Shown here: positions 30,676-37,120 of the stretch, in pieces
Layout: each line of letters opens with the position of its first letter
Numbering within the stretch: position 1 is the first letter of the stretch
NCBI RefSeq assembly: GCF_965641715.1
Contig: NZ_OZ282453.1
DNA: 64,000 nucleotides
Strand: one strand, 5' to 3'
From: Escherichia coli
GTDB lineage: Bacteria; Pseudomonadota; Gammaproteobacteria; Enterobacterales; Enterobacteriaceae
Program-made: the position numbers and the translations under genes
The notes under the pieces: generated by a model
What the model was told of the DNA's origin: nothing
Seen by the model: the letters and a program-made list of their open reading frames with translations, nothing else
Databases searched by the model: none

Positions 30676-30709
30676 AAAACCGCTAATGGTCAGATTAGCG
30701 GTTATTTTG
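30676..30709. terminator. Bidirectional intrinsic terminator between gpU and the invertase gene
   Basis: aaaaaccgctaatggtcagattagcggttattttgtttt: a 9-bp perfect stem (accgctaat/attagcggt) flanked by A-run and T-run, between convergent genes. Confidence 0.7.
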
Positions 30710-31307
30710 TTTTCTGACTCTTCTCTATTGCTCCGCTTGATTCTCCTGCGGGGTGGTAACGATAAATCGTCGATGTACCAATGCCGTAAATTATTGCCAG
30801 TTGTTTTCTGTCGTGACCGTTTTTAATCAGCCTTGCTATTTGCTCATGCTGTTCTTTTGTCAGCTTCGGGCGACGTCCGCCTGTGCGCCCCCGTGCGCGC
30901 GCTGCTGCCAGTCCGGCCAGTGTACGTTCAACAATTAATTCACGTTCCATTTCAGCCAGGGCACCCATCACGTGGAAGAAAAAACGCCCCATTGGAGAAG
31001 ATGTATCTATGCTGTCGGTCAGACTGCGAAAATTAATCCCTCGCTCCCGTAGTTCCCCGACGAGAGAAATCAGATGTTTCATGCTTCGCCCGAGGCGATC
31101 CAGTTTCCAGACAACCAGCGTGTCACCTTTTTGAAGACGCTTTAAAGCGCGTTTTAATCCCGGTCGGTCTGTCTTTGTCCCGCTTAATTTATCTTCAAAT
31201 ATTTGTTCACATCCTGCACAAACAAGAGCGTTTCGTTGCAGGTCTGTATTCTGGTCATTTGTTGATACCCTTACATAGCCAATCAGCACGCTGAATCTCC
31301 CGTCCAA
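30702..31307 (-). CDS. Serine DNA invertase (Hin/Gin/Cin/Pin family)
   Basis: IGYVRVSTNDQNTDLQRNAL...GDTLVVWKLDRLGRSMKHL...MGRFFFHVMGALAEMERELIVERT, near-identical in pattern to Hin/Gin including the catalytic Ser; C-terminal HTH. True start may lie a few codons inside the ORF. Confidence 0.9.
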   Translation of the reverse strand: MDGRFSVLIGYVRVSTNDQNTDLQRNALVCAGCEQIFEDKLSGTKTDRPGLKRALKRLQKGDTLVVWKLDRLGRSMKHLISLVGELRERGINFRSLTDSIDTSSPMGRFFFHVMGALAEMERELIVERTLAGLAAARARGRTGGRRPKLTKEQHEQIARLIKNGHDRKQLAIIYGIGTSTIYRYHPAGESSGAIEKSQKTK

Positions 31308-31342
31308 AAGCGTAAATCATGCCATGCAGGTCAGAAACGGCC

Positions 31343-31368
31343 ATTATCTAAAACCTCGGTTTACAGGA
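31343..31368. repeat. Invertase crossover site, left (gix/hix-like 26-mer)
   Basis: ttatctaaaacctcggtttacaggaa, an imperfect palindrome of the Hin/Gin site type; inverted copy at 34409..34434. Confidence 0.8.
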
Positions 31369-32374
31369 AACGGTAAACAGGGCTGGTAACGCCGTGCAAA
31401 AAAATGGCGATACTTTGTCCGGTGGGCTTACTTTTGAAAATGACTCAATCCTTGCCTGGATTCGAAATACTGACTGGGCGAAGATTGGATTTAAAAATGA
31501 TGCCGATGGTGACACTGATTCATACATGTGGTTTGAGACAGGCGACAACGGCAATGAATATTTCAAATGGAGAAGCAAACAAAGCACCACAACAAAAGAC
31601 CTGATGAATCTTAAATGGGATGCTTTGTATGTTCTTGTTAAAGCTCTTTTCAGCAGTGAAGTAAAAATATCGACAGTCAATGCACTGAGGATATTTAATT
31701 CATCTTTTGGTGCCATTTTTCGCCGTTCTGAAGAATGCCTGCATATCATCCCTACACGAGAGAATGAGGGGGAAAATGGTAATATAGGGCCACTACGTCC
31801 CTTTACGCTTAATCTCAGAACTGGCCGCATAACTATGGGGCATGGTCTGGATGTTACAGGAGATATAACAACTAACGCCTGGGTGTATGCAAACAGGTTT
31901 GCTATTAATAGTGGCTCAACCTCATGGATTGATATGCGAAACCAGAATGTCATTTTTGGTAGAAACGCAGTATCAACAAGTTCTGCGCAGGCTTTGTTAA
32001 GACAAGACCATGCAGAACGCAAATTTTTTGTCGGTGGACTTGGTAACTACCAGTTTGGTTTTTACATGATTAATAACTCAAGGACAGCCAATGGCACCGA
32101 TGGTCAGGCGTACATGGACAATAACGGTAACTGGCTTTGTGGCTCGCAAGTTATTCCTGGCAACTATGGCAATTTTGATTCCAGATATGTGAGAGATGTT
32201 CGCCTGGGTACGCGAGTTGTTCAATTGATGGCGCGTGGTGGTCGTTATGAAAAAGCCGGACACGCAATTACCGGATTAAGAATCATTGGTGAAGTAGATG
32301 GCGATGATGAAGCCATCTTCAGGCCAATACAAAAATACATCAATGGCACATGGTATAACGTCGCACAGGTGTAA
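31369..32374 (+). CDS. Alternative tail-fibre C-terminal cassette (silent in this orientation)
   Basis: Frame open from the crossover site; encodes ETVNRAGNAVQKNGD..., parallel to the H segment after its own site, and ends ...INGTWYNVAQV like the expressed fibre. No promoter or N-terminus of its own. Confidence 0.75.
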
Positions 32375-32905
32375 ATGATGCAGCATTTAAAAAATATTAA
32401 GTCTGGAAATCCTAAAACGAAAGAACAATATCAGCTAACAAAGAATTTTGATGTTATCTGGTTATGGTCCGAAGACGATAAAAACTGGTATGAGGAAGTG
32501 AAAAACTTTCAGCCAGACACAATAAAGATTGTTTACGATGCAAATAATATTATTGTCGCCATCACTAAAGATGCCTCCACGCTTAACCCTGAAGGTTTTA
32601 GCGTCGTTGAGGTTCCTGATATTACAGCCAACCGCCGCGCTGATGATTCAGGAAAGTGGATGTTTAAGGATGGAGCTGTAGTTAAACGGATTTATACGGC
32701 AGACGAACAGCAACAACAAGGCGAATCACAAAAGGCCGCATTGCTTTCCGAAGCTGAATCAGTCATCCAGCCGCTGGAACGCGCTGTCAGGCTGAATATG
32801 GCAACAGACGAGGAACGCACACGACTGGAAGCATGGGAACGCTACAGTGTTCTGGTCAGCCGTGTGGATACGGCAAATCCTGAATGGCCACAAAAGCCTG
32901 AATAA
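32375..32905 (+). CDS. Tail-fibre assembly chaperone (partner of the silent cassette)
   Basis: 176 aa, [26 protein letters not shown]...; clear paralog of the oppositely oriented 177-aa ORF. Confidence 0.8.
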
Positions 32906-32933
32906 AAATTAAGGCCCGCGATCGGGCCTTGTC

Positions 32934-33467
32934 TCATTCAGGTTGTTCGGGAAATGTTACTGGCAGGCTGGAGGTGTCTGTAGATTCGACTTTCTGCGCA
33001 TAGAGCATCCACTCGGTTAATTTTTGTTTATTCTCGTCGGAAATGATGCCCAGCCGTAGCTGTGAGTCCCATAGCTGGGTTTTATCCCTAACGAGCTGTA
33101 GCAGGCTTTGCTTTTCATTTTCCGCCTGCTGCCTCTGCTCTTCCTCGGTATAAGTTCGCTTTACCACTACGCCATCTTTGAACATCCATTTACCAGAAAT
33201 ATCAGCCCGGCGATTTGCTGTAATATCAGGAACCTCAACGACGCTTGCGCCTTCTGGATTAATTGCTGAAACATCCTTTTCAATACAAATAATAACGTTG
33301 TTGTGGTCATAGACCATTTTCAACGTATCAGGCTGAAAGTTCTTTTGTTCCTCATACCAGTTTTTCCCATCCTCTGTATAAAGCCATTTGATGTTAAATT
33401 GTTTCGTTAGCTGGTATTGCTCTTTTGTTTTAGGGTTGCCAGCAGTAATATTTTTTAAGTGCATCAT
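32934..33467 (-). CDS. Tail-fibre assembly chaperone (partner of the expressed fibre)
   Basis: 177 aa, [25 protein letters not shown]...; directly downstream of H on the same strand. Confidence 0.8.
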
Positions 33468-33469
33468 AA

Positions 33470-35698
33470 TTAAATACTCCCCGCGTTATACCACGTCCCA
33501 TTAATGCAATACTGAATTGGCCTTGCCTGAGTTGTATCAATTAATTCATCACGGTTTCCGTTAACTGAACCCGTAACGACATAACCTGACCTGTCAGACC
33601 AGCCGGGACCATTCCATGTCTGAACAGATGACAGACCGCCAAGGCGAATACCTGTAATAAACCTTGAGTTACATTCTGCCTGCGTGTATGCACCAACATC
33701 TCCCGCAGAGGGTTTGCGGGTCGTGGTGTAAAACTCTGACCAGTTAGCCTCAAATCCATAACCATCACGCGCTGAACGATAAAAAATACCGCCGTTCCTG
33801 TAATTCACGCGGAACTGTACAGCAGGGCAGCTCCCCGTATTCATATTGAAGTGGAGGATTAATGTCGATGCACCGCTGATATCTGCATCATAAACACCGC
33901 TATTCCAGTTCCAGCCAACAGCTTTATCATTTGCAACCCTGCTTCCTGTTTGCCCTAAAGCAAATGCAGGCTGCTGGTTTTTCGTGTTGTAGTCTCTTCG
34001 CCAGCCAGGAGCATAAGCATCACCATGATTAATATAAGTGAATTGAGCGTTAGAGGTGCCGCCTCCGGTGGAAGTGCTTGGTGTTGTTACACGGATGGTC
34101 ATGGCACCTTTATTACCCATAACCTCAATAACGCAACCTGCAAGATGAATAGTTCCACAGCCAGTATCGGTAATAATTTTATTATTGCCGTATGACCATG
34201 AACATTTGCACATCCAGTATGGGTGATTGAATGCCCCTTGAGAATCCAGCCATTCAATCAATTGTGCCGTTGTCCAGTTCCCTGCCCCTGTACTAATAGC
34301 ACTGTGAAAAGCGCGACATGCACCAATATTTTTTGTGAAGGTATCTTTTCCTGGAATATCTGCGCCGTTCTGGTTTTTCTGTAATGCGCCAGAAGCCTGA
34401 TTTACCGTTTCTTGTAAACCGAGGTATTCGATAACGGCAGCAACGGTCGATTTCGCAAGAATATCCCGCCCGACTTTTGTCAGGGTTGCCAGGCTGGCGA
34501 CATCATTCCCCGTAAAATACGGAAACCTGTCTGCCGCAGTAGCAAGCCCGGCCAGCGCCGTCAGGGTGGCATCTTTCGGTTGCTTACCCGCAAGCGCGTT
34601 AGTCATGGTGGTCGCAAAATTCGGGTCGTTTCCCAGCGCCGCCGCTAACTCGTTCAGCGTATTCAGTGCGTCAGGTGACGAATCTACAAGGGCGGCAATC
34701 GCAGCCATAACGAAAGCCGTGCTTGCGATTTGGGTATTATTCGTTCCCTGTCGCGCAGTTGGCGTTGTTGGCGTTCCGGTCAGCGCAGGACTGTTTAAGG
34801 GCGCTTTCTTGTTCGTTTCATCCATTACCGCCTTAACCGCTTTCGATGTCGCGGCCAGTGTTTCAGACGTGCTGTTGGTGGCACTACTGAGCTGGACTAT
34901 CCCTTTTTGTGCCGTCGTGGCGTCCTGAGCGGTATATTTTGCGTTAGCAAGGTCATACGCGGCCTTTACTGCTTTCGGCGTTGCAGCCTGCGTTTCAGAC
35001 GTGCTGTTGGTGGCGCTACTGAGCTGAACTATCCCTTTTCGCGCAGTGGTAGCGTCCTGTGCGGTGTATTTGCCATTAGCCAGGTCATATGCCGCCTTAA
35101 CAGCCTTTGGCGTTGCCGCAAGCGTTTCAGACGTGCTGTTAGTGGCGCTGCTAAGTTGAACAAAGCCTTTTGCGGTCAGCGAGGCGTCCGGGTGACGTCG
35201 TGAGTGTTCATGCTCTTTCAGTTTGTCATCCACGTAATCCACTGTGGCCATTACCATGGTGTTATCCACGGTAAGCGCCACGGTGGCAGTGCTGGATACG
35301 GTCAGAATGGTGCGAAATGTTTGTGCACGTCCTGACCCTTCGGCAACGGTTGGCTTGTAACTTTCGGCAGTATTGCCTACTGCGATTAAATCGCCGTGCT
35401 CATCAAACACACCAATTTCCCGGATCCAGAATCCGCCCGTTTCTGGAGGAATAACCAGCTCCGCAATAATGCGGTTCTGATGTGTTGCGTCCAGGATGAC
35501 GCGATTAACAGTGTGTCGCCACACCTCATGCACCAGACGGGTCTGCTTACTGTCTGGTGTGGGCAACGTGCCGCCACCGTCGCCCACGGCCATATGAGTC
35601 AGGCGGACAGGCTTACCATCTGGCGCGGCTGCCTGAGCTAATTTTTTTGCACCCGTATCGGTGATAACGGTTTTAAATTTTCGTGTTGTGGTACTCAT
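33470..35698 (-). CDS. H: Tail fibre protein gpH (constant N-terminus plus currently selected variable C-terminus)
   Basis: 742 aa; conserved phage-fibre N-terminus, three tandem 43-aa repeats, crossover site near codon 421, C-terminus ...[12 protein letters not shown]. Confidence 0.85.
34409..34434. repeat. Invertase crossover site, right (gix/hix-like 26-mer, inside gene H)
   Basis: ttcttgtaaaccgaggtattcgataa, the inverted partner of the left site. Confidence 0.8.
34906..35290. repeat. Three tandem ~129-bp repeats inside the tail-fibre gene
   Basis: The DNA repeats encode [43 protein letters not shown] three times with minor variation. Confidence 0.7.
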
Positions 35699-35700
35699 GC

Positions 35701-36231
35701 TTAATCGTCCGGATAAATGGTAATGACTTCACCGTCGTAAGTTGCTGCCGCCGCGAAAATATCTCCCGGGATCTCCTGAATGATATTCAGCCCTGTCATG
35801 TGGCGGCTGACCGGGCGGGCATCAGCAATCAACCGCTCCATTTCCAGATACATTTCCTCCGTCACGCCACTGTCCAGCGTGCCGACTTCAACGGTAAATG
35901 TTCCCGGTTCTCCGTCGAACTCCCACCACTCAGACACGCGAATGAGGTATCCCAGCGGCTCAATGGCCCGGCGCAGTGCGCTGATGGTCCCTTTGTGTCG
36001 GTGTATCAGCCATGCATCACGAATCACCTGTCGCTTTGTCTCTTCCGGCCAGTTGCGATCCCAGCGGTCAACGGAAAATGCCCAGGCGAGATAAGGCAGC
36101 AAATGCACCGGGCAGGTGTCCGGTGACCACAGCGTGTTGAGGTCTACCGGGATGTCTGTAATGCGCGCTCCGACAGCTTCGGCGCAACGCATGAAACGGC
36201 TGGCTGATGGCGGTAACAGTGAATTACTCAT
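35701..36231 (-). CDS. I: Baseplate protein gpI
   Basis: Syntenic between J and H. Start placed at MSNSLLPPSASRF, about 176 aa; the track ORF extends 11 codons further upstream. Confidence 0.75.
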   Translation of the reverse strand: MSNSLLPPSASRFMRCAEAVGARITDIPVDLNTLWSPDTCPVHLLPYLAWAFSVDRWDRNWPEETKRQVIRDAWLIHRHKGTISALRRAIEPLGYLIRVSEWWEFDGEPGTFTVEVGTLDSGVTEEMYLEMERLIADARPVSRHMTGLNIIQEIPGDIFAAAATYDGEVITIYPDD

Positions 36232-37120
36232 TGCGCCCACCTTCGCTGATGGTGAATGACTCACAGCGCGCCGCCTGTATGTCGCTGATGGCCAGATTCT
36301 GTGTGGGTTCGATTATCTCCACGCGTTGCACACCGTGCACATGCAGTGCGGCAGCAATGGCGGACAACGCCACGTCCTGACCGATAAGCCCCTGCTCAGC
36401 CAGCCACTTCCTGAACGACGATTCAGCCGCCGCCAGAATAGGTTCGGATTCCGGGCCGGGGTAAAAGTACAGTTTTGCATTCAGCCGCCATGTCACGATT
36501 CTGGCACTCTGTACGGTCAGGCGGTCGGCCACCGGGCGGGTATCCTCTGCATTCAGAACGGCGCGAACGGTATTAAGCAACGCCTCCGTTGCTGTGCCGT
36601 CGCCCTCAGTGGACAGGATGGAAACCGTCACGTTGGCCGGAGACGGGCTGATGGCCCGCGCATCGCGCACCAGACCGCTGGCGCTGCGTGCAAAATACTC
36701 GTATGCGCCTGACGGGCCAGCAACACTCAGACCATCATACGCCCGTTGCGCCCGCAGTCTCAGCGAGGTGTCGCTCTCCATCACCGCGTCGGTGGTATCC
36801 GTTGCCGGAGTGATAACCAGGCGCTTTGTGTTCATATTGCCCGCGAGGTTGTCCAGGTCTGTTCCGGTGCTGTGGCTCAACATGCAGGCGCGTGCGCCCT
36901 CGTTAACCCGCTGGCGTAACAGCATTTCACGAAACGACATGGTTTGAGCGATAACGTTCAGGGGTTCCGATTCCAGCTCCAGCGCGGCGGAGACGGCTTC
37001 ACGCTGTTCGGCGGGATAAGCCGCAATCATCATGGCCTTTGTGTCAGCCAGAATTGCTTCAAAGTCAGGCTCCGCGATGATGGCGGGTTCCGGTAACTGG
37101 GAAAGGTCAACGGCAGGCAT
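36224..37120 (-). CDS. J: Baseplate wedge protein gpJ
   Basis: 298 aa, size and position of P2 gpJ. Confidence 0.8.
   Translation of the reverse strand: MPAVDLSQLPEPAIIAEPDFEAILADTKAMMIAAYPAEQREAVSAALELESEPLNVIAQTMSFREMLLRQRVNEGARACMLSHSTGTDLDNLAGNMNTKRLVITPATDTTDAVMESDTSLRLRAQRAYDGLSVAGPSGAYEYFARSASGLVRDARAISPSPANVTVSILSTEGDGTATEALLNTVRAVLNAEDTRPVADRLTVQSARIVTWRLNAKLYFYPGPESEPILAAAESSFRKWLAEQGLIGQDVALSAIAAALHVHGVQRVEIIEPTQNLAISDIQAARCESFTISEGGRNE

Follow-up and report, generated by a model that had tools for sequence, protein, structure and literature searches.

The tail-fibre gene of an Escherichia coli prophage was predicted to carry tandem repeats in its constant part. This raised the questions of what the repeated unit is, whether and how its number changes among related fibres, and what the number does for the fibre. 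We addressed them in the 64,000-nt stretch of contig NZ_OZ282453.1 that holds the gene (hereafter the window) and in its relatives. The units are very probably Phage_fiber_2 (Pf2) modules of the trimeric fibre shaft of a P88-like, P2-family prophage, with a count that changes by in-register recombination of whole modules.

The fibre gene and its neighbourhood comprise the following features (positions in the window):

35701..36264, minus strand: baseplate protein gpI, directly upstream of the fibre gene (PF09684 Tail_P2_I, E 2.8e-51)
33470..35698, minus strand: tail-fibre gene, P2 gpH / P88 type, ORF of 742 aa (PF12571, E 1.4e-53; PF03406, E 1.3e-61)
35240..35683, minus strand: N-terminal tail-collar / baseplate-attachment domain, aa 6-153 (PF12571 Phage_tail_fib, 181 bits)
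35036..35167, minus strand: repeat unit 1, aa 178-221 (PF03406 stretch, aa 173-213)
34904..35035, minus strand: repeat unit 2, aa 222-265
34772..34903, minus strand: repeat unit 3, aa 266-309, a hybrid of a conserved 26-aa core (34826-34903) followed by P2-H-type distal shaft sequence
34374..34438, no strand: right inverted repeat (invertible segment; gix-like core TTATCGAATACCTCGGTTTACAAGAAAC), at the constant/variable boundary of the fibre gene
32934..33467, minus strand: tail-fibre assembly protein, current orientation (PF02413, E 4.1e-37)
32375..32905, plus strand: tail-fibre assembly protein, alternative orientation (PF02413, E 1.3e-36)
31394..32374, plus strand: ORF of an alternative variable fibre C-terminus (P2 H / Mu S-like), silent in the present orientation (PF21446; weak match to Mu S, 5yvq)
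31340..31404, no strand: left inverted repeat of the invertible segment, pairing with 34374-34438
30702..31307, minus strand: serine DNA invertase of the Gin/Cin/Pin type (PF00239, E 1.5e-50; PF02796)

The baseplate genes gpI and gpJ lie upstream of the fibre gene. The fibre is of the P2 gpH type, with a tail-collar domain, Pf2 units, a distal receptor-binding part and its cognate Caudo_TAP assembly gene directly downstream. The two inverted repeats are 65 nt long and carry the gix-like core TTATC(T/G)AA(A/T)ACCTCGGTTTACA(G/A)GAAAC. Together with the alternative fibre end, the second assembly gene and the invertase, they split the gene into a constant and an invertible variable part. Inverted gix-like sites in the fibre gene, an adjoining serine invertase and two sets of fibre end plus assembly gene are also what characterizes the invertible segments of Mu (G) and P1 (C). 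The C-terminal 320 aa in the present orientation (aa 422-742) were near-identical to Mu S' (PDB 8ju3, E 3.8e-201). Positions 31340-34438 of the window thus form a Mu-G-like invertible segment on a P2-type tail, each end having its own assembly gene. Protein database entries with the same constant part and different ends (661, 716 and 725 aa) are consistent with inversion in the population.

The tandem repeat is real and well above chance expectation. In the window, Tandem Repeats Finder reported a period of 132 at 34828-35161 (2.5 copies, 82% matches, score 444), and a separate repeat search found three 98-nt copies at an exact spacing of 132 nt. The array is in frame with the 742-aa minus-strand ORF and spans 34772-35167, with three units of 44 aa (132 bp). 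The original prediction was right about a tandem repeat in the fibre, and the peptide it quoted is the true sequence of unit 1. Period and interval were wrong: its unit of 43 residues (~129 bp) was one residue off, and its interval (34906-35290) takes in 123 nt of unrepeated upstream coding sequence (aa 137-177) along with units 1 and 2, and misses unit 3. The location it gave, the shaft in the constant part, was confirmed. The units lie between the N-terminal tail-collar domain and the distal part of the protein, with the array between the baseplate-attachment domain and the invertible segment, about 330 bp upstream of the gix-like site.

Each 44-residue unit consists of a conserved core of about 33 residues, which begins with G, and an 11-residue linker. 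The Ser/Thr-rich stretch SSATNSTSE was highly conserved. The description of the units as near-identical holds for the protein of units 1 and 2 (91% aa identity), but not for their DNA (79.5% nt identity) and not for unit 3 (59% aa and 59-64% nt identity to the other two). Unit 3 has only its first 26 residues in common with units 1 and 2 and continues with a different sequence. Between units 1 and 2 there were 20 synonymous and 4 non-synonymous codon differences (pS 0.68, dS about 1.7, dN 0.05), and synonymous sites between the window units are close to saturation. A dN/dS of about 0.03 points to strong purifying selection on the protein sequence of each unit. The longest in-register identical runs between window units were 19, 17 and 23 nt. 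Two unsupported antisense ORFs of 120 and 98 aa (34566-34928 and 34907-35203, both on the plus strand) cross the repeat region; most likely, they arise because the coding sequence on the opposite strand is repeated and GC-rich.

By profile matching, the units are assigned to PF03406 (Phage_fiber_2, "phage tail fibre repeat"), of which the fibre of this P88-like, P2-family prophage has three modules. The fibre protein scored 204.3 bits (E 1.3e-61) over three stretches, against a curated cut-off of 22 bits. First noted in lambda Stf, the family also has members in P2 gpH, in Mu S and in fibres of E. coli prophages. Like the window's unit, the PF03406 repeat is a tail-fibre element of about 40 residues; the window, a three-unit instance, differs from it in nothing essential. 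The repeat is widespread, with 14,126 cluster representatives matching at E <= 0.001 a 196-aa repeat region that included flanking sequence. The feature is therefore an ordinary and already catalogued one: a P88-type prophage fibre with the PF03406 array in its common three-unit form. As the prophage type is already in GenBank, the window itself adds little that is new.

The closest phage was Escherichia phage P88 (Xuanwuvirus P88; tail fibre AIZ95147), with 96.5% nt identity over the constant part. P88 has three units at the same positions, and the same gene order, two assembly genes, alternative fibre end and invertase. The P88 record, however, has the alternative distal end in frame (764 aa, versus 742 aa in the window), and its unit 1 is only 81% identical to the window's at the DNA level, so that unit 1 is of mosaic origin. 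At the DNA level, unit 2 is 96% identical to its P88 counterpart; for unit 3, identity is 99% to the P88 counterpart and 88% to P2 unit 2. The P2 gpH fibre shares the domain order, the unit sequence and the hybrid last unit, but it has two units instead of three, its match to the constant part is 132 bp shorter, and P2 is without an invertible segment. Phage Mu, with its S/S' fibres and G segment (PDB 5yvq, 8ju3, 9ki1), shares the S' end, the gix-like sites and the invertase. It differs in its N-terminal domain and in having a single Pf2 unit (residues 111-150 of S).

Structure and function of the Phage_fiber_2 repeat are little known (PMC3368898), and a PDB sequence search with the unit profile found no solved protein with the unit except Mu S. 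The motif is similar to that of the alpha-beta fibrous repeats of T4 gp34 and gp12, which have 33-47 residues and variable loops. In these T4 repeats, a beta-strand begins at a conserved Gly and a helix at a conserved Ser/Thr-Pro; on the trimer axis, the helices pack into a three-helix bundle (Granell et al. 2017, PMC5537660). A global profile alignment placed G on G and TP on TP, while tests for homology to the gp34 repeats gave no significant score (hhalign P 0.02-0.03; HMMER single-sequence E 0.05-0.3). AlphaFold2 models of aa 150-345 had pLDDT values too low for a comparison of folds, of 40 for the monomer (10-row alignment) and of 30 for a pseudo-trimer (three chains, 50-residue Gly/Ser linkers, matched alignment rows). 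In both, GxVQLSS formed a short strand and a 12-residue stretch formed a helix, a pattern to be read as a hint at secondary structure only.

The number of units differed among relatives. The 1259-nt constant part had matches with spans of 995, 1127, 1259 or 1523 nt on complete E. coli chromosomes. Read in register at 44 aa, one unit was found in L003, two in L002, three in the window and five in L001; L001, L002 and L003 are on complete E. coli chromosomes, and their genes otherwise match. When the whole gene was used as query, eight of the best 12 complete genomes had spans about 132 nt shorter and four had spans of query length, consistent with two and three units, respectively. Database proteins with four units (705 aa, some on chromosome-size contigs), five units and six units were also found.

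A larger sample was taken from IMG/VR, namely 48 complete fibre ORFs with an N-terminal domain at least 95% identical to the window's. Two units were the most frequent (22 ORFs), followed by three and four (8 each) and one (6), with one ORF each for five, six, seven and eight units; the spacing was always 44 aa. Many IMG/VR loci stem from draft assemblies, where the count of units with 100% identity is liable to error. The comparison among relatives proposed with the original prediction thus gave 1 to 8 units, not an invariant count. The suggestion made there, that fibre length could vary between isolates, stands for unit count and protein length, from which a longer physical fibre, with a fixed length added by each module, would follow.

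The same distal module occurred with different counts: one, two, three or five units for the P2-H type, two to seven for the NDNANGRVPS type, and four, six or eight for the type leading directly into a Mu-S'-like head. Unit number therefore varies independently of receptor-binding type. The five-unit and two-unit loci on complete chromosomes (L001 3001-7406, E. coli P13-6; L002 3001-5741, E. coli CDF6) belong to decaying prophages. In them, truncated fibre genes encode 566 and 552 aa, and the annotation marks the fibre and assembly genes that follow downstream as frameshifted or partial.

Several relatives carry traces of how the number changed. The L001 array differs from the window array by an additional 264-bp block. 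Units 2 and 4 of L001 have 100% identity, as expected of a duplication of this block, and its unit 3 is chimeric: nt 1-26 are those of window unit 3, and from nt 22 on the sequence is that of unit 1. This junction points to unequal in-register recombination, and the crossover would lie where the units are most conserved, in the ATNSTSET codons. The eight-unit array of L019 is that of L020 (six units) with unit 4 present in two further copies of 100% identity; the flanks of the two loci are 98.4-98.8% identical. In L005, the pair of units 3-4 recurs as units 5-6. As the period comprises only whole codons, unequal recombination in register would gain or lose 44-residue modules, or 88-residue pairs, with the reading frame intact. 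The resulting fibres would form a family graded in shaft length, in steps of whole modules.

The last unit was a hybrid in every array, with the conserved 26-residue core followed by one of at least three unrelated continuations: the P2-H type, as in the window, NDNANGRVPS..., or one running straight into a Mu-S'-like head. The core would thereby double as a joint for splicing on unrelated distal modules. Hybrid last units with the core as joint fit a long-standing view of tail-fibre genes as mosaics, with exchange at motifs they share (Haggard-Ljungquist 1992 and Sandmeier 1994, as cited in PMC8986868). The core of unit 3 (34826-34903) and the same position in L004-L060 form the junction to unrelated distal modules, a natural splice point for fibre-end exchange. 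For the design of chimeric fibres, in engineered P2 particles or tailocins, the core offers this splice point and the unit number a natural length adjuster.

The most likely role of the unit is that of a stackable shaft module, which would set the distance between the baseplate and the receptor-binding tip. The array sits in the constant part, between the baseplate-binding domain and the invertible receptor-binding end, and is thus common to both alternative fibres. Repeats of the adenovirus fibre shaft make up another length-polymorphic fibre shaft. Among E. coli prophage fibres, collagen segments vary by multiples of 3 residues and coiled coils by multiples of 7 (PMC3368898). All these shafts resemble Pf2 arrays in that length shifts by whole structural repeats, whereas repeat unit and fold differ. 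Fibre length may in turn affect adsorption or host range. Literature searches returned nothing specific on Pf2 copy-number variation or on effects of fibre length on these two properties. The fibres surveyed here are a natural series, otherwise similar and with 1 to 8 shaft modules, in which fibre length can be related to adsorption.

It is possible, though we consider it doubtful, that the differences in copy number are altogether neutral. The Pf2 core would then serve as a homology patch for recombining fibre genes, gains and losses of units would be tolerated without selection, and shaft length would have no functional role. The hybrid nature of every last unit, with its conserved core and unrelated distal modules, agrees with this, and so does the wide range of total fibre length across the 48 ORFs (558-951 aa). 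Within each distal-module type, no significant relation between copy number and distal length was found. Across types, however, copy number dropped with a longer distal part (Spearman -0.59, P 1e-5, n = 48, L001-L057; -0.53 without duplicates and truncated genes), which hints at some length balancing, although this raw correlation (overall range -0.53 to -0.60) ignores phylogeny. The strong purifying selection on each unit also speaks against full neutrality. Part of the variation could still be a neutral by-product of mosaic recombination.

At the other extreme, unit number could be a selected length rheostat, which we regard as unlikely. Shorter distal modules with more units would balance reach, synonymous divergence of neighbouring units may be favoured as stabilizing a useful count, and identical duplications would mark recent re-tuning. 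In a stronger form, the 44-residue step may match the structural period of the tail sheath where the fibre is stowed. The correlation above is the evidence for such length compensation, and it is a lead only, as the trend comes from differences between distal-module types.

The units could also be binding sites instead of spacers, either periodic contacts by which the folded-back fibre docks on the sheath, or low-affinity glycan sites that set avidity. Mu fibres, which have one Pf2 unit, are docked along the sheath groove before infection (PMC11915804), and the conserved stretch SSATNSTSE would, on this reading, be a surface loop. Searches gave no evidence of binding, and 1 to 8 units on near-identical baseplate and N-terminal domains are hard to square with a fixed docking geometry. 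We consider binding sites quite improbable and return to the shaft module as the preferred reading.

The array in the window is a three-unit allele that is common, old and stable, not one that is hypermutable or recently duplicated. Of the 60 complete genomes that matched most closely, 59 had three units, and three sibling isolates of strain 2020N21-110 are among these 59. Each window unit has a positional counterpart in other phages, and unit 1 is 100% identical to unit 1 of L002. The minimal segment for efficient RecA recombination in E. coli is reported to be roughly 23-27 bp. The age and stability of the array follow from the identical runs of 17-23 nt, which are at or below this minimum, from the near-saturated synonymous sites, from the constancy of the count in 59 of 60 genomes and from the counterparts elsewhere. 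Given this near-fixed state in the closest complete genomes, changes in count are rare. "Prone to slippage", as the repeats had been called, is too strong for this allele.

A contingency locus, in which frequent slippage would make fibre length heterogeneous within one lysogen population, is accordingly highly improbable. In-frame tandem repeats in a host-interaction gene and the recent, 100% identical duplications in some relatives are what such a locus would be expected to have. The window units are only 59-80% identical in their DNA, with no shared run above 23 nt, and the count is constant as described, so the array was rejected as a hypermutable repeat. That the count is an assembly artefact, a frequent error with tandem repeats and one that had been named as refuting the original prediction, can be dismissed, since the units are readily distinguished by their 20-40% DNA divergence, the same constant part was recovered from many independent contigs (15 for P0042, 5 for P0043) and phage P88 has the same three units.

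The wider family includes other periods. A second P2-like lineage, with an N-terminal domain about 62% identical (L058, L065-L078; proteins P0121 and P0122), has the same Pf2 core with a 23-residue linker containing SHTHPW (ASASHTHPWSQITDVPAASLTVK). Its period is 56 residues, in arrays of 2-5 units (e.g., aa 180-459 of the L069 fibre ORF). Some database proteins mix 44- and 56-residue units in arrays of 10-11, and periods of 39 and 58 residues are also present.
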